Source: a virus. From it: a DNA stretch of 64,000 bases. Shown one piece after another: positions 2,849-55,688 of this stretch. The stretch's first letter is position 1. Each line of letters opens with the position of its first letter. The position numbers were made by a program, and so were the translations under genes. The notes under the pieces were generated by a model, which saw only the letters and a program-made list of their open reading frames with translations, made no database searches and was not told the origin of the DNA. The DNA is taken from IMG/VR virus record IMGVR_UViG_3300023179_000040, positions 42,613 to 106,612 of that record. One strand, 5' to 3'.

Positions 2849-4954
2849 ATGGTATATCCTACTGGAAATAATAGTGCAAATTATAATTCTTGTGCTAATT
2901 GGGATGGTTCGATAAATGGCAATGTTACTACTGTTGGAAGTAATGGTGGGCCATCTGCTTATGGTACTTATGACCAGAGCGGTAACGTTAATGAATGCGT
3001 TATATCATCAAACCAAAGTTATTTGTTCGGTGGTGATTTTAATGACCCCGATTTCTATTTATCTGCTGCTGCTGCAACTCCAGTAGCACCATTTGCTACA
3101 TATACATTAGGATCTCCTAGCATGGGTTTTCGTTTAGCGTCATTATTAGACATTTATAGCTATAGTAGTTTTGTTGCGGTAGGAGATGCATCTAATCTTA
3201 ATAATATCTATGGATGTGGATTTGTCCCTTATGCCTATAAAATAGGTCAATATACAGTAACTGTTTGTGAATATGTTGAGTTTTTAAATTCTATAGCAAA
3301 AACAGATACTAATAAAGTATATGATATTAATATGGCTAGTGATAGATGCGGGATATTAAGATCTGGAACACCTGGTAATTATATATATGATATTCGCTCC
3401 ACATATGCTAATAAACCAGTTGTTTATGTTAGTGTTATGAATATGTTGAGATATTGTAATTGGCTACACAATAGAAAGCTATCTGGTACACAGGATGAAA
3501 CTACAACAGAGGACGGTGCATATTATATATCGCCGCTCGCAGTAATTCAACAAAGACCTAATCCCCTGTATAGACTGCCAACAGTAAATGAATGGCATAA
3601 AGCAGCTTATTACAAGGGTGGTGGTACTAACGCTGGTTATTGGACTTATGCTACTCAAACAGACACAGCCCCAATATGTGTAACGGCAAATTCCAATGGC
3701 GATGGACCTTTCTTGTCCAATTATATATGCTCTTATGTTGTTCCTGGTCCTACTCCAACACCTACTAATACCGTAACACCATCAGAAACACCAACAAATA
3801 CTCCTACGCCAACTGTTACTCCAACCAACACAATCACTCCGACAGTCACCCCAACTAATACCGTAACACGAACAAATACTCCAACACCTACTGTTACTCC
3901 AACTGTTACTCCAACCAACACAATCACTCCGACAGTCACCCCAACTAATACAAGAACTCCAACCGTTACTCCTACTAATACCGTAACACCATCAGAAACA
4001 CCAACAAATACTCCTACGCCAACTGTTACTCCAACCAACACAATCACTCCGACAGTCACCCCAACTAATACCGTAACACCAACAGTGACAAAAACACCTA
4101 CTCATACTCCAAGAATAACGAGCACACCAACACCGTCACCAACCAAACCTGTACCCCCCACAATGATTACTCAAAAACTTCAATTTGTTAAATATTTAGG
4201 ACAATCTGATATAGAAATATCTTCATTATCCAGTAATATATTGAATCAAATAGACACTATATACTATATTGACAATCAATCTTCATGGCTCTCATGGAGT
4301 GCTAACGGAATCAATAGTTTAAGCTCTTTACAAAGATATAAAACATATTTAATTATTAGCAAAAATAGTAATCCTAATTATAGTCTATATAGCAATACAG
4401 ATATATTGGATTCAACATCATTTACTATTCTTAATAAAAATATTTCTATAGAAACTTATCGAGGACATAGCTCTTTGATTATTAATAATGCATCATGGAA
4501 GAATAATATTAATAAAATTATAGGATTAAATAGCACTAGTTCGTCGTATATTAGTTGGGATTCATTAATACCAGCTAATCTGAATAGTCTAATGTCTTTA
4601 GAACCGAATAATGGATATATCTTTTTTGCAAATACAACACCCATAGTATTATGGTCAGAGACTTTAAGATCAATTAATAATTGGACATATAGATATAATA
4701 ATTTTTTGTCTTTAAGATTCATACCTAATACATTTGAATCCACCATAGAACTATCTGTACCAATGGTGGACACTTTAGATCTTCCTTCTGTTGGAACACC
4801 AGCTCCACTACCGTCTACTTGTGTAGTAACCAGAAATGGTAGTAAAATTGGAGATTTACTATTTATACCAGCATATAATGGTAAAAATATAACAGCTATT
4901 ATCAGTGGAATATCATATTCATCCACTATTAATAATGGTCAAATTAATTTTTAA
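2849..4954 (+). CDS. FGE-sulfatase (CLec-fold) domain protein, circularly permuted, with long T/P linker
   Basis: Motifs [49 protein letters not shown]; AAGGA RBS upstream. Confidence 0.75.
3745..4160 (+). repeat. Coding tandem repeat (T-[VI]-T-P-T-N units)
   Basis: Degenerate 12-30 nt units with a ~120 nt higher-order repeat. Confidence 0.9.
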
Positions 4955-5015: not shown

Positions 5016-6089
5016 ATGTTGATTAATAATGAATTTGCTATAGAGAGATACAACGGTCAATATGCTCTAACTTTATTATCCGCTCCCGCAGGAATGGATA
5101 GTGCTACTCAGCAACAGTATACGTCTTTTATGAGTAATATTGTTACTATATATGGTAGTCAAAATGAACAAGGCGCTGTTCCTGTTTTTTTCAAAAATAG
5201 TTCTGGCGCCCCTAGTTCTAGTAGCACTCTTACTCAATTAGAATCTGGTCAAGAATATTATTTTATTTCCAAAAATACAGCAGTATTTCCATATGCTATT
5301 CCCGCTATCGGCGGACCAGCAACAGCGTCATGCCCCACTTTACCAACATGCTGCCCATATATTAATTTTACATCTAACAATGTTACATTATCAGGGCCGC
5401 CAGAAAATATTTATGCTTATCTTACTGCTAATATTAGCGGATTAGAGCCAGGAAAAGAATATAGGTACTCTTTTGAATCAGTAGCGGCTAATTGGCCATC
5501 TAGAGTTAGTCCAATAAGTGGAACATTTATTCCTATGTCTTATAGCGATACTATTGATGCTGTATTTCGTTTTTGTCCAGAATCTGGTAATTGCACTGAA
5601 TATTGGCAATATACTGCTGATACTAATCTTAACAAAGATTATAGTCAAAAAAATATTTTTTCATCTGTTAAAATCAAACTATATCCTACAGAAGGATCAG
5701 ATTGTGATGTTATGAGTGATATGGTAACTGTAAAGTGCAATAAATGTTTGCCTGGAGGATTATACTATAGACCCAAACCATCTATTGCTGGATCTCCAAA
5801 ATTATCTTTAACCGCTGGATGTTGTGCTAATCCTATTCCTTTAACTATTAATATTACCGGGGCTGAACCAGGTAAAAATTATACTTTTAATGTACAAGCT
5901 TGGCCAGATACTGTAGCGGTTAGTCCAGCTACTGGTATTAGTAGTTTTGGTGATGGAACTGGTAAAATATTATCTATGGTTAGTATGAGCGGTATCCCTA
6001 GTAGTGTTGTTAAATTTGTATTAAATGATAATGTTACTGGAGAAAGTTTCGTTGATTTTACCAGTATAGTATGCAACTCTAGTTGTTAA
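5016..6089 (+). CDS. Cys-rich virion protein with two Ig-like repeats
   Basis: Repeats NISGLEPGKEY...VSP and NITGAEPGKNY...VSP; CC motifs. Confidence 0.55.
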   Translation: MLINNEFAIERYNGQYALTLLSAPAGMDSATQQQYTSFMSNIVTIYGSQNEQGAVPVFFKNSSGAPSSSSTLTQLESGQEYYFISKNTAVFPYAIPAIGGPATASCPTLPTCCPYINFTSNNVTLSGPPENIYAYLTANISGLEPGKEYRYSFESVAANWPSRVSPISGTFIPMSYSDTIDAVFRFCPESGNCTEYWQYTADTNLNKDYSQKNIFSSVKIKLYPTEGSDCDVMSDMVTVKCNKCLPGGLYYRPKPSIAGSPKLSLTAGCCANPIPLTINITGAEPGKNYTFNVQAWPDTVAVSPATGISSFGDGTGKILSMVSMSGIPSSVVKFVLNDNVTGESFVDFTSIVCNSSC

Positions 6090-6121: not shown

Positions 6122-8266
6122 ATGCCATATGTTGTTCCTAGTCCAACGGTTACACCAACATCATCAGTTACTCCGTCTGTAACTCCTACACATAGTATTA
6201 CACCAACAGTTACACAGACCAATCGTATCAGATATCATAAAACTAATTTGCCAGATACTGTAAATATTGATTGTATTGATGATTGTACAGTGCAAAATTT
6301 TACAGGATATGGATCTGATCGATCAGTATCATTGAGCTGGGAGCTTGATTCTTATTGCTCTAGTTTAGTTAAAAACTTTACTATAGAATATAAATTATCT
6401 GGAGCATCAAGTTGGACTTTTTATAGTAATGCAACTAATACAGATAGAAGTATTATTGTAAATAATTTAATTAATAATTATGCATATATTTTTAAATTAT
6501 CTATGATTAGATATAGTAGTAGCGTATCTTCTAGCTATTGTAGCGTTGTAATATCTCCTTCTGAGTCAAAAACCCCCACACCAACCGTTACTCAAACAGT
6601 TACTCCAACACATAGTTTAACTCCATCTGTTACTCCAACTAACACAAGTACTCCAACTGTTACTCCAACCAACACAATCACTCCGACAGTCACCCCAACT
6701 AATACAAGAACTCCAACCGTTACTCCTACTAATACCGTAACACCATCAGAAACACCAACAAATACTCCTACGCCAACTGTTACTCCAACCAACACAATCA
6801 CTCCGACAGTCACCCCAACTAACACAAGTACTCCAACCGTTACTCCTACTAATACCGTAACACCATCAGAAACACCAACAAATACTCCTACGCCAACTGT
6901 TACTCCTACTAACACAGTAACTCCCACTAACACTGTTACCCCAACTAATACTGTGACTCCAACCAACACAATCACTCCGACAGTCACCCCAACTAACACA
7001 AGTACTCCAACCGTTACTCCTACTAATACCGTAACACCAACAAATGCTCCTACTAATACCGTAACACCAACAAATACTCCTACGCCAACTGTTACTCCTA
7101 CTAACACAGTAACTCCCACTAACACTGTTACCCCAACTAATACTGTGACTCCAACCAACACAAGTACTCCAATTGATACCGTAAAACCAACAAATACTCC
7201 AACACCTACAGTTACTCCAACACATAGTTTAACTCCATCTGTTACTCCAACTAACACAGCTACTCCAACTAACACAAGTACTCCAACTGTTACTCCTACT
7301 AATACCGTAACACCATCAGAAACACCAATGCCGCCGCCATCACAAACTCCAATCCTCGAGTTTCCAACTCCTACGCCGCAGGCACCACAACCTCCGGTGC
7401 CGGTGCCGTGCGACTGTACTTTGCCACAAAGTATTAATCAATATTATATATATGACAGCAATGGTAACCCAGCTCCAAATTCTTTTGCCGAATTATATAG
7501 TAAGTGTACTGTTTATGCTGCAGGAGGATTTGCACGGTGTGAGTTTGTCGGATTTCCTTGTCATTATTTTGGTGATGATGTAGGGTTAAATGGCGGAGAT
7601 TGTATATTAAAATGGACATACGGATATTTAGATACTAAAATAGGTTCTACATTTTTAGCCAGAGGTATATTCAGTATGACTTTTGAAGGATATAGCTTAA
7701 GTAAAATTAAAATATATGAGTGTACCGGGAAAACCTGGACAGATGTTTCTGAACAAGCATTGTCACCCGAATTTGGTAGTACTGTTCCTTTTATTAATGG
7801 GTGGTGGTGGAATGATTTTGAAAGACCATCTGCTGCTCCGGGAGGTGATGTATCTCCACCGATTACTATTCCGTTAACGCCGCCGTGCTGCGTGCCCAAT
7901 GCTCCTTGTGATGGTGATTGCTATAATCTTTTCGGAGCGTCAATTTGTGACGATTGTCCACCAGGATATACTAATAATGGAATGAATTGTAATTATCCAT
8001 GTATTAAAAATTGTGAATGTTGTTTATGTGATATTCCGAATAATAATCTTGTTTCAGTAAGTATAGAAGAATTTAATTTAAGTAATGGACCAGAAGTATG
8101 CGTTTCAGATATTGAATTATTTACAAGTCCTTCCGGATCAGGTACTATTTATTGTGGTCATGCTTTAGATCTAAATGCCTTTTCCATTATTTGGACAGAT
8201 TCTGGTAATACAGACTCTAATGGGAATAGTGTATATGATGTTATGAAAACAAAAAAATATGTATAA
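6122..8266 (+). CDS. Modular fibre-like protein: FN3 domain, ~250 aa T/P stalk, Cys-rich C-terminal domains
   Basis: FN3-like VSLSW...IEYK...W...VNNL...YIFK; long TPTNT tract; PCDC...PPCC Cys-rich tail. Confidence 0.7.
6570..7325 (+). repeat. Coding T/P tandem repeat sharing identical blocks with repeats at ~3.9 kb and ~9.4 kb
   Basis: ~6651-6822 matches ~3897-4068; ~6893-7080 matches ~9380-9567. Confidence 0.9.
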
Positions 8267-8915
8267 TTTTAATTGTCAATTTAGAGAATCCGATAATAGT
8301 CCTTGTATTTGTAAATATCAATCGTTAAAATTAGGACATATAGTAAAAACATCTTCACTATTTTGTAATCATGAATGTCCGAAAAATGTTTATGAACAAG
8401 GAGAAGAAGATAAAGAATTTTTAATAAAGTGTTTTAATAGAAGATATAATCATGAATTTATAAATAAAGTAATAAATAAATTTGCTAAACAAACTAAACT
8501 TATAGTACCATCTATTTGGCCAGAAGTATTCCGCACTCTTTATGATATTTTGTCTCAAGAGTTATGGTTTGATGATATTGGGTTAACAGGATCCATAATA
8601 GTTGATGGAGTAGATAATCAAAAAGATATTGATATTGTAATAGGTATTAAAGACATAAATGAGTATATACAATGGTCAAAAAATAACTCATTACCAAACT
8701 ACATTAATAATATTAAAACAGATTATTATCTTTATGCAACTCCTATGGATCAAGCCAAAGAAACTATTTGTGGATCGTTTTTTTTATCTTTATGGCCAAA
8801 TAAAAAAATTATTTATACTAATGAATTATTTAAAAAAAATATAATTTTTCCAAATGATTATCAGGTATTTTATAATAATATTATCGATCAACTTTTTTAC
8901 AATATTGGTAAATAA
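8259..8915 (+). CDS. Pol-beta-fold minimal nucleotidyltransferase-like protein with Cys-rich N-terminus
   Basis: IGLTGS...KDIDIVI (GS plus DxD) and a downstream KTDYY third Asp; 8-nt overlap with the upstream gene. Confidence 0.55.
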
Positions 8916-8988
8916 ATGATAATGTTTCCAAAGAGAGTATAATTTCTAACAGTGGGGATCTCAAGCTTTAATAACTATTTACATACAT

Positions 8989-9003
8989 AGTGTATATAAT
9001 AGT
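8989..9003 (+). promoter_or_regulatory. Variant of phage promoter motif
   Basis: AGTGTATATAATAGT, 40 nt before the ORF at 9029. Confidence 0.45.
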
Positions 9004-9028
9004 AACTTTAAAAATTAATAAGTAATTT

Positions 9029-10195
9029 ATGATATTTAATAATACTAATTATATAGAATTTGCATATAACATTACTATTACCAATTTAACAATCGGAGAT
9101 GCCTATTCTATTAGTCTATCTTTGCTATCTGATTTTGCTCCAGAGCTAGCTTCTGTTAATCCTTCCACAATTTCTTTTATAGCTTCAGATTACTATCAGA
9201 ATATCTCTCTGCTAATAACTATGGATAAAAATGATCTACTAATACTAAAAATAGATAGCTTAAATACTACAAAAAATAAAAGAGATATTGATAGTGTTTT
9301 TATTAAATGTAGTGAAAGAAATTTATGTTCTCCTAGACCAACAAAAACACCGACAGTCACCCCAACTAACACAAGTACTCCAACTGTTACTCCTACTAAC
9401 ACAGTAACTCCCACTAACACTGTTACCCCAACTAATACTGTGACTCCAACCAACACAATCACTCCGACAGTCACCCCAACTAACACAAGTACTCCAACCG
9501 TTACTCCTACTAATACCGTAACACCAACAAATGCTCCTACTAATACCGTAACACCAACAAATACTCCACCTCTTTACACCACGCCGCCGCCACCTTGTTA
9601 TTGCAGATCTAATTGCACAATAAGCATGCCGGAGCCAGAAGGCAGCGAATCATGGAATTGGACGTTTTATTCTCAAGCGTTCTTAAATACGACGCCGCAA
9701 TCATTTTCACTGCAATCTGCTTACCAAGATTATTTGAGCGGATGTACCTACGTTTGGGTTTATTCGCACAGGCAGACGCTTGGCATTGATGATTTGTTCG
9801 TAGATGGGTGCCAAGCAAACGTTGGAGTGAACTTGCCAGGCAAAGGCTTTACTGGATTGTTGGGAATCGGGCGCGTCAAATTTCAATATCGTCTGATGCT
9901 ATGCCAAGACAACGTGTTTTTTGACATTACAGAAGACGCGCTAAGCGCGTGCGGTTATTCGGGCAGCACTCCTCAAAACGGGCCTCCATATACTAATCTT
10001 GTTTCGTCAAATTGTTTGAGCGGGGAGTATATGTGGTGGCAAACTAGCCAGGAGTCTGGTTTTGCCAGCGTTTCGGACGAGTTTTTGTACAAACGGTCGT
10101 GGTGTGACGGTAGCGTAGTGCTTGCACCAGAACGGCCGCCGTCGCCAGTAGGCACGCTCGATGTTGTTCCGACCCTTAATTGCGCAAACCCCTAG
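9029..10195 (+). CDS. Modular protein: Ig-like N-domain, T/P linker, high-GC Cys-rich C-terminal cassette
   Basis: ITNLTIGDAY N-domain; T/P tract; PCYC...LCQDNVFFDITEDALS C-domain. Confidence 0.7.
   Translation: MIFNNTNYIEFAYNITITNLTIGDAYSISLSLLSDFAPELASVNPSTISFIASDYYQNISLLITMDKNDLLILKIDSLNTTKNKRDIDSVFIKCSERNLCSPRPTKTPTVTPTNTSTPTVTPTNTVTPTNTVTPTNTVTPTNTITPTVTPTNTSTPTVTPTNTVTPTNAPTNTVTPTNTPPLYTTPPPPCYCRSNCTISMPEPEGSESWNWTFYSQAFLNTTPQSFSLQSAYQDYLSGCTYVWVYSHRQTLGIDDLFVDGCQANVGVNLPGKGFTGLLGIGRVKFQYRLMLCQDNVFFDITEDALSACGYSGSTPQNGPPYTNLVSSNCLSGEYMWWQTSQESGFASVSDEFLYKRSWCDGSVVLAPERPPSPVGTLDVVPTLNCANP
9345..9570 (+). repeat. Coding T/P repeat
   Basis: ~188 nt identical to 6893-7080. Confidence 0.9.
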
Positions 10196-10236
10196 CCGCT
10201 GCCATCACAAACTCCAATCCTCGCGTTTCCAACTCC
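10196..10236 (+). repeat. Dispersed 41-nt repeat (copy of 7331-7371)
   Basis: 39/41 identical; encodes PxPSQTPILxFPTP, in frame after the TAG of ORF 9029-10195. Confidence 0.9.
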
Positions 10237-10278
10237 AACACCAACCATTACGCCGACTACAACATACACAAATACGCC

Positions 10279-10422
10279 CGGGTGAGTTTAGTTCTTAATT
10301 TTGTCTTAAATCCGCTCAAAAGTGAAAATTTATTTTTAGTGGATCATATTTTATGTGCTTTTTGTGGATTTTTTAATCTATACTTTGTGCGTAATAAACT
10401 TGTTCCTTTTAAAGACTACTAG
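10279..10422 (+). pseudogene. 3' remnant of a paralog of the membrane protein at 55401-55688
   Basis: VSLVLNFVLNP...HILCAFCGFF-NLYFVRNKLVPFKD aligns with ISLLLTCFINP...NILSAFCGFFINLYFVRKHIIPFRD; the N-terminal half is absent. Confidence 0.7.
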
Positions 10423-10503
10423 TAATAAGTGTTCCAATTTGCTCCTTTAAACAAGCTTAATATTTAATCATATATTTATGATTAGCTTATTGACTATTAG
10501 CTT

Positions 10504-10518
10504 GGTGTATTCTAATAT
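10504..10518 (+). promoter_or_regulatory. Putative phage-specific promoter
   Basis: GGTGTATTCTAATAT, 38 nt before the ORF at 10542. Confidence 0.65.
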
Positions 10519-10541
10519 AGAGTACATTATGGGAGAATATT

Positions 10542-10781
10542 ATGGCTAATTCAAATTTAAAAGTAGTTTTTTCTTTTGGTAATATTGTTCAATTAGACAA
10601 TAATCAATGCTCTTGCCCAAATATGGTTGAGGTCAATGTGTCTAATTTAACTATAGGAAAAAATTATACGGTCTATATCAATAATTTAAATAATGTGCCA
10701 GTAAGAACTTTCCCCGAAAGCTACTCCTTTACTGCAACAAACGAAACCAAAAATTTATCATTCTATTATCAGTTTGCTTAA
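10542..10781 (+). CDS. Small stand-alone Ig-like domain protein
   Basis: VSNLTIGKNY...FPESYSF resembles the N-domain of ORF 9029; GGAG RBS. Confidence 0.6.
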   Translation: MANSNLKVVFSFGNIVQLDNNQCSCPNMVEVNVSNLTIGKNYTVYINNLNNVPVRTFPESYSFTATNETKNLSFYYQFA

Positions 10782-55400: not shown

Positions 55401-55688
55401 TTAATCACGAAACGGAATAATATGCTTACGAACAAAATATAGATTGATAAAAAATCCACAAAAAGCACTAAGAATATTAGAAACCACAGGAAAGGTAATA
55501 TCCTCGAACGGATTAATAAAACAAGTAAGCAGTAGGCTTATCCAAAAACTACTACATTCATGACACAACAGAGGTTTGCTAAGTATAGGAAATTTTGCTA
55601 TATAATTTCTGAATGGGACACTAACCTCTGTGTCGCTCCATGCATAACAAACACCTAAAGATAAACATAAAAAATATAATAAAATCAT
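55401..55688 (-). CDS. Small membrane protein with CxxC (DUF1360-like)
   Basis: Hydrophobic helices, LLCHECSSFW. Confidence 0.55.
   Translation of the reverse strand: MILLYFLCLSLGVCYAWSDTEVSVPFRNYIAKFPILSKPLLCHECSSFWISLLLTCFINPFEDITFPVVSNILSAFCGFFINLYFVRKHIIPFRD

Follow-up and report, generated by a model that had tools for sequence, protein, structure and literature searches.

How a fibre-like gene of an AT-rich phage comes to end in GC-rich DNA is the question raised by ORF 9029, an open reading frame (ORF) in the metagenome-derived virus record IMGVR_UViG_3300023179_000040 of IMG/VR. The DNA analysed here, which we call the window and whose positions we use throughout, is the terminal 64 kb of this 106.6-kb record (34% GC, about 71% complete according to CheckV). 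A sequence-only reading of the window had proposed that the Cys-rich tips of ORF 9029 and of the upstream ORF 6122 are divergent paralogues from an unrecognised family of receptor-binding domains, recently imported from higher-GC phages or hosts. We conclude that ORF 9029 is probably a chimeric gene for a virion fibre or adhesin of an AT-rich tailed phage, and that its tip domain is a recent import from a clearly higher-GC genome; the tip of ORF 6122 takes a different place in this account.

An abrupt change of composition marks the DNA that encodes the tip of ORF 9029, hereafter the cassette. Over positions 9566-10192 both the GC content and the GC content at third codon positions (GC3) are 0.49, compared with GC3 values of 0.15-0.21 in the neighbouring genes. 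When sliding windows of 100 codons were taken across all long ORFs of the record (1205 windows, mean GC3 0.207, standard deviation 0.059), the six highest values, 0.46-0.52, all lay in the cassette, about 5 standard deviations above the mean. This bears out what the sequence-only reading had noticed from three counts of G and C in 60-nt stretches (28/60, 34/60 and 11/60), which are exact. In-frame sliding windows place the edges of the GC-rich block sharply at about 9570 and about 10285, that is, up to 90 nt past the stop codon. Furthermore, NCG codons account for 39% of NCN codons in the cassette versus 5-8% elsewhere, the frequency of G at third positions (G3) is 0.27 versus 0.10-0.12, and the observed/expected ratio of CpG is 1.18 versus 0.62-0.97. 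At the protein level, the ratio of the residues GARP to FYMINK is 1.07 in the cassette, 1.1-1.7 (to 1.68) in the relatives of the domain described below, and 0.23-0.75 in the phage's own proteins; for these relatives the composition is read at the protein level.

The sole other GC3-rich gene is that of the major head protein (0.36 overall, with windows to 0.47), where the bias concerns C-ending codons only (C3 0.24, G3 0.12, NCG 5% of NCN). Because the rise in the capsid gene is confined to C3 and leaves NCG at 5%, expression bias does not explain the cassette, which in its codons, bases and encoded residues bears the mark of DNA with a history of another mutational bias. The same foreign-type signature is carried by linker L of ORF 6122 and by a patch of that gene at about 7840-7900, on the border between its first tip domain and its Cys-rich segment. 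Outside these two small Pro-rich patches the tip of ORF 6122 is native (GC3 0.04-0.28). The proposed recent import of a high-GC tip thus stands for ORF 9029, and falls for ORF 6122, whose tip has a native GC3 of 0.21 save for the two patches.

The conserved gene adjacent to this region retrieves two phages from IMG/VR, L002 (46% identical) and L003 (35% identical), both with about 33% GC, and the conserved 652-aa and ~2100-aa genes are present in them as well. At the corresponding position both carry other modular proteins, with Pro/Thr (PT) linkers, Ig-like repeats and FGE-sulfatase-like domains. Neither the tip of ORF 6122 nor that of ORF 9029 was found in these two distant relatives, and their loci contain no GC3-rich windows, with maxima of 0.32 and 0.26. 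As the two relatives differ at this position and the flanking genes are conserved, the stretch is a variable fibre/adhesin region ahead of a conserved core. Two marks of horizontal acquisition are therefore found in the cassette, namely a composition beyond expression bias and absence from the syntenic position in relatives.

The borders of the cassette retain traces of its arrival. The 222 nt of Pro/Thr stalk DNA at 9346-9567 are 95% identical to 6859-7080, and this identity stops exactly at the cassette border. The 10-mer GCCGCCGCCA occurs in the window only at 7330 and 9583, and a copy with one mismatch, GCCGCTGCCA, is found at 10195. At 7330-7339 this 10-mer forms the beginning of linker L, so that ORF 6122 has one copy of the Pro-Pro-Pro junction, at the border between stalk and linker L, and ORF 9029 has two, flanking the cassette. 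Directly after the TAG stop codon (10193-10195) the reading frame goes on with PLPSQTPILAFPTPTP... as far as a TGA, and the 48 nt at 10195-10242 match linker L (7330-7377) in frame with 92% identity, the longest exact run common to this orphan linker and the L of ORF 6122 being 23 nt. No relic of an older tip was found in 10196-10560, where tblastn with the ORF 6122 tip finds linker L only. The heptamer GCCGCCG, which the sequence-only reading had described as rare elsewhere in the window and close to module borders, is indeed concentrated here: five copies are observed in the window versus 0.37 expected, and none of 100 shuffles reached five, and four of the five (7330, 7879, 9583 and 10135) lie inside 2.9 kb, as the Pro-Pro codons of module junctions. 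A blastn search of the region against cultured phages gave no match, and an exact search of IMG/VR for the core of linker L found none.

Next to composition and borders stands the protein family. With the ORF 9029 tip as query, all of 1.84 billion cluster representatives were scanned with HMMER; this returned four matches, three of them credible, and was the sole search to yield relatives. P0003 is 92% identical (221 aa, E 4e-126, query residues 6-209), P0004 is 44% identical (255 aa, E 4e-47, query residues 7-209) and P0005 is 36% identical (372 aa, E 8e-12, query residues 33-207); the fourth, P0006 (E 7e-4, 67 residues), we regard as spurious. An alignment of the tip with the three relatives (A1) spans the whole domain and has 57 invariant columns, including six Cys, and the family motifs Y.W.Y..RQT.G.D, RL..C......D.T..A, CL.GEY.W and RP.SP.G.LD..PTL.C can be read in the ORF 9029 tip. 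The tip departs from P0003 at 16 positions, which are concentrated in residues 27-34 and 133-149; each of these stretches is a low-confidence loop in the AlphaFold2 (AF2) model of the tip. This model is mostly beta (predicted local distance difference test score, pLDDT, 63; predicted template modelling score, pTM, 0.58), and has no meaningful structural neighbours and no recognisable fold. The tip has no sequence match in Pfam, PHROG or the PDB. Further searches were empty: a word-based search among longer proteins, IMG/VR (queried by protein and by family alignment), the JGI metagenomes (with the alignment and P0005) and the GTDB genomes (with the alignment and P0004), and the ESM Atlas gave no usable match. 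Collectively, these searches describe what appears to be a very small, uncharacterised family with four credible members, the tip of ORF 9029 included.

P0003 and P0004 share the C-x-N-P terminus of the phage domain, which identifies the TAG as the family's own stop. A reading of this TAG as sense was set aside, as TAG ends 14 of the 69 long frames of the genome, the standard code leaves long ORFs intact, and the TAG falls at the residue where P0003 and P0004 also end. Likewise, an intron-like GTGAGT...TTTTTAG at 10283-10340 was dismissed in this phage with operon-style overlapping genes. All three relatives are short proteins without a Thr/Pro stalk, two of which (P0004 and P0005) have a Cys-rich N-terminus that begins Met-Ala-Cys. 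Since a stalk is found in none of the three, the stalk fusion is peculiar to this phage, and the stalk-less relatives would fit the capture of a stand-alone gene.

The two fibre-like genes lie in what is recognisably the late structural module of a tailed phage. The genes for large terminase, portal and major head protein are upstream of the fibre region on the plus strand, and after the head genes come a 4021-aa protein, an array of Thr/Pro-stalk proteins and conserved genes of 652, 2087 and 2247 aa. With terminase, portal, head genes and stalk array upstream and conserved large genes downstream, ORF 6122 and ORF 9029 have the gene position of a fibre or receptor-binding protein. This position, together with the architecture of a stalk followed by a tip, suggests a receptor-binding role for ORF 9029.

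We propose the following account. The small AT-rich N-terminal domain and the extended Thr/Pro stalk would be ORF 9029's own parts, and the C-terminal domain of 209 residues, mostly beta and probably disulfide-bonded, with three or more bridges predicted, would be a recent import from a rare family whose members are otherwise short stand-alone proteins. The landing site would have been a copy of the stalk-plus-linker segment also carried by ORF 6122. Insertion may have taken place at the (CCG)3 Pro-Pro-Pro junction, by crossover at short homology, which would leave the junction duplicated on both sides of the insert as it is now. The imported stop codon would then have cut off the old linker and any tip formerly behind it, with 90 nt of in-frame linker surviving past the TAG. 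In the particle, the small N-terminal domain would anchor the protein, the stalk would serve as an extended spacer that most likely keeps the tip at a distance from the particle, and the target of the disulfide-stabilised tip would most likely be a structure on the surface of the host or of particles, so that a swap of tips would retarget the adhesion of the phage. A bolder version, which we offer as a speculation that is rather unlikely to hold, would make the nearly identical stalk DNA of several genes and the (CCG)n Pro-Pro junctions a docking site: stand-alone surface-binding domains would be captured there from unrelated GC-richer genomes and mounted on existing stalks, the ORF 9029 tip being a recent capture that belongs to a new binding fold with disulfide bonds.

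Several observations weigh against a recent import into a fibre gene. Collections of viruses, metagenomes and genomes were scanned without yielding DNA that encodes the relatives, which leaves the comparison with a donor to proteins, and no tail fibre or receptor-binding protein that has been characterised was found to be homologous. The record was assembled from a metagenome, and the left edge of the insert falls within repeated stalk DNA, where a chimeric join could arise. Both genes have a GC-rich linker L, and the block of high GC reaches 43 nt beyond the L homology. More than one order of events would fit this, with one import or several and with different origins of L.

We considered whether, as the sequence-only reading had it, the two tips are strongly diverged paralogues within a single receptor-binding domain family; one would then be resident and adapted to the phage's composition, and the other re-imported from a GC-richer relative. 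This appears unlikely, although it is not without appeal. The features on which the idea was built are in the sequence: in both ORFs a Thr/Pro stalk is followed by a Cys-containing C-terminal part (starting PCDC in ORF 6122 and PCYC in ORF 9029), and the two 21-residue strings and the WW pairs that had been quoted are present. P-C-x-C opens both tips directly after a Pro-rich junction, the Cys residues are roughly collinear over the first ~105 residues (2, 4, 52, 66 and 106 against 2, 4, 51, 73 and 104), and the 21-residue stretch, with C...D[VI][ST]E.ALS, is equidistant from the start in both tips and forms a beta-hairpin with a short helix in both AF2 models, that of ORF 6122 being very poor. 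Close to the domain end both tips have a stretch resembling ERP...G..DV, which was correctly seen, but its alignment requires an indel. Tests of overall similarity do not lift the pair above chance. A semi-global alignment reaches z 2.25 (67 of 2000 shuffles as good) and hhalign selects exactly the shared motif (E 0.063, over 26 columns only), but BLASTP between the tips gives E 0.59 and their local alignment z 1.5, a result matched by 174 of 2000 shuffles. The family profile scores 0.6 bits on the ORF 6122 tip, a score equalled in 793 of 5000 shuffles (16%), and misses ORF 6122 among the 459 ORFs of the genome. Most of the family-invariant residues are absent from the ORF 6122 tip, including Y.W.Y..RQT.G.D, CL.GEY.W and PTL.C.NP; the pair of tips had been chosen post hoc by eye; and word-based searches with the ORF 6122 tip found no bridging sequence.

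The searches with each tip separately ended differently. Three relatives were found for the ORF 9029 tip by HMMER; for the ORF 6122 tip no homologues were found in IMG/VR, in two word-based protein searches (covering 171-546 aa and 392-1250 aa) or in the ESM Atlas, an exhaustive HMMER scan not having been made for it. Structure prediction gave the mostly beta model for the ORF 9029 tip, and the single-sequence AF2 model of the ORF 6122 tip is uninformative (pLDDT 36). In ORF 6122 as a whole, the PHROG match is confined to the PT stalk (phrog_15511). The paralogy proposed for the two tips thus finds no significant homology behind it, and the claim of an unrecognised domain family survives for the ORF 9029 tip and not for that of ORF 6122. 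The latter looks like a separate domain of native composition, with no demonstrable relationship to the import.

A second alternative, which we consider quite improbable, is an assembly artefact, in which a GC-rich block of 0.7 kb from another organism or phage was spliced into the contig through shared Pro/Thr or poly-Pro repeat DNA. The record being a metagenome-derived viral contig, such an error is conceivable, the more so as the left junction falls where stalk DNA shared by three genes at 95-97% identity comes to an end, and as the domain has a different N-terminal context, without a PT stalk, in its 92% relative P0003. Nevertheless, the stalk passes into the family-conserved PPPPCYC start without a break in the reading frame, and the right transition from GC to AT at ~10285 is not at any repeat. 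The orphan L behind the stop has diverged from the L of ORF 6122; at 92% identity and with a longest exact run of 23 nt it is not a collapsed repeat. Furthermore, the foreign codon signature is met at a second place in the contig, in linker L of ORF 6122. Least of all do we credit a home-grown composition, produced by selection (on translation speed, mRNA structure or a hidden overlapping function) or by targeted hypermutation such as that of a diversity-generating retroelement: the capsid gene does reach GC3 0.40-0.47 in 100-codon windows and the nearby ORF 2849 does have an FGE-sulfatase (C-type-lectin-like) domain, a fold often used by retroelement targets, but the capsid bias is of another kind from the G-ending, NCG and CpG richness of the cassette, the amino-acid make-up of the cassette is shifted as well, its antisense frames hold short ORFs only (60-69 aa), no reverse transcriptase (PF00078) was found in the 106-kb, ~71% complete record by a search that gave matches in control genomes, and blastn of the cassette against the genome found no template-like second copy. 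A retroelement is on these grounds rejected within the record; a reverse transcriptase could lie in the missing part.

Table. Positions of the features discussed, in window coordinates
Feature	Positions	Strand	Description
ORF 9029	9029..10195	+	388 aa; AT-rich native N-terminal domain, Thr/Pro stalk, compositionally foreign tip
Stalk block of ORF 9029	9346..9567	+	95% identical to 6859-7080
Cassette	9568..10195	+	Cys-containing domain of 209 aa, mostly beta; ends in its own TAG (10193-10195)
Left bracketing direct repeat	9583..9592	+	GCCGCCGCCA; encodes PPP
Right bracketing direct repeat	10195..10204	+	GCCGCTGCCA; one mismatch; begins on the G of TAG
Orphan in-frame linker	10195..10285	+	PLPSQTPILAFPTPTPTITPTTTYTNTPG, then TGA at 10283-10285; still GC-rich and NCG-rich (repeat family D5)
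AT-rich intergenic region	10286..10541		No ORF; GGTGTATT at 10504-10511, 30 nt before the ATG of ORF 10542 (10542)
ORF 6122	6122..8266	+	Fibre-like protein, 714 aa; short PT stretch, fn3-like domain, long Thr/Pro stalk, linker L, C-terminal tip
Stalk DNA block of ORF 6122	6859..7080	+	Recurs at 9346-9567 (blastn self-comparison of the region)
Linker L of ORF 6122	7328..7408	+	63% GC; NCG 41% of NCN codons; G3 0.44
First tip domain of ORF 6122	7409..7870	+	Starts PCDC; native composition, GC3 0.21
Second Pro-rich, GC3-rich patch	7840..7900	+	GC3 0.40-0.44; GCCGCCG at 7879
Cys-rich segment and C-terminal tail of ORF 6122	7871..8263	+	Very AT-rich third positions, GC3 0.04-0.26

The surroundings of the two genes show further repeats and shared modules. 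Thr/Pro stalk DNA (3748-4200, 6560-7327 and 9326-9567) is 95-99% identical across three genes, as in the pairs 3877-4068 with 6631-6822 (97%) and 3758-3858 with 6722-6822 (99%), and such identity would suffice for the fibre genes to recombine or undergo gene conversion with one another. Between the two fibre genes, a very AT-rich ORF at 8259-8915 (218 aa, GC 0.23) shares its first 8 nt with the end of ORF 6122; it has no Pfam or PHROG match and could be a fibre assembly factor. Downstream of the orphan linker, an AT-rich intergenic element of ~53 nt at 10346-10394 has a second copy at 55426-55477 on the minus strand (two copies, 87% identity, core GTGCTTTTTGTGGATTTTTT..AATCTATA.TTTGT.CGTAA). 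Both copies are oriented with the local coding strand, and the element may be a phage promoter or a regulatory site.

ORF 10542 (10542-10781, 79 aa) resembles the N-terminal domain of ORF 9029 (9029-9325), with a N.S/T.NLTIG..Y motif, and may be a stalk-less remnant. Akin motifs are found twice in ORF 5016 (5016-6089), and what the three ORFs share looks like a family of small Ig/fn3-like modules reused across the fibre array. ORF 2849 (2849-4954) begins with its FGE-sulfatase domain (E 6.5e-13), followed by a PT stalk and another C-terminal domain; a sequence similar to this FGE-sulfatase is C-terminal in an 822-aa protein of L002, and ISGI.Y......G.INF terminates both ORF 2849 and ORF 1639. 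The minus strand carries replication genes, namely DnaB, primase, a split DnaE-type polymerase, ribonucleotide reductase and PhoH. The polymerase (34773-39126, minus) consists of two ORFs of 621 and 540 aa that match consecutive parts of one PHROG profile and are separated by a 231-aa ORF plus a gap, and the large subunit of ribonucleotide reductase and PhoH each match their own profile in two separated stretches. These split matches suggest inteins or inserted genes.

Three known systems invite comparison with ORF 9029. In the targets of diversity-generating retroelements, such as Mtd of the Bordetella phage, a fibre tip is likewise variable at its C-terminus, and ORF 9029 has an FGE-sulfatase/C-type-lectin-like gene in its neighbourhood. 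Unlike in those targets, no reverse transcriptase or template repeat was found here, and it is a whole domain that is foreign, not scattered adenine-templated variation.

Secreted modular proteins, among them bacterial cellulases and other carbohydrate-active enzymes, have Pro/Thr-rich linkers between their domains. There, as in the proteins described here, long spacers of the TPT type separate globular modules, and modules are shuffled at the linkers. The present proteins differ in belonging to a phage structural module, in having linker DNA that is 95-97% identical in three genes of one genome, and in having no recognised catalytic module save the FGE-sulfatase-like domain of ORF 2849. With DNA so nearly identical between three genes, the phage stalks also offer homology for recombination.

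The third comparison is with the mosaic tail fibres and receptor-binding proteins of phages, of the T-even gp37/gp38 or lambda Stf type, whose C-terminal domains are exchanged horizontally. Exchange of fibre tips is the main route by which tailed phages change their attachment, and the recombination joints are usually erased. In ORF 9029 both joints, the duplicated 10-nt crossover site, the imported stop and the stranded linker survive, which would allow the event to be reconstructed base by base. The transfer of receptor-binding domains between unrelated phages is discussed in PMC11738781. Like the mosaic fibres, ORF 9029 joins a conserved part near the particle to a distal tip that varies, belongs to a late structural module, and appears to have had its tip replaced by recombination at a linker, the tip being foreign in composition and absent from relatives. 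Unlike them, it has a Thr/Pro low-complexity spacer in place of a trimeric coiled coil or beta-helix, no similarity of its tip in sequence or fold to a characterised fibre, adhesin or depolymerase was found, and the import appears to have carried its own stop and left an orphan linker. Short runs of Pro codons and shared low-complexity stalk DNA are thereby indicated as sites at which foreign domains may be grafted, and the imported domain, as one of four credible members of a family with no recognisable fold, is a candidate for a new binding module. The shuffling of tip domains is well known in phages; in ORF 9029 it is caught unusually cleanly, and with a domain family that is uncharacterised.

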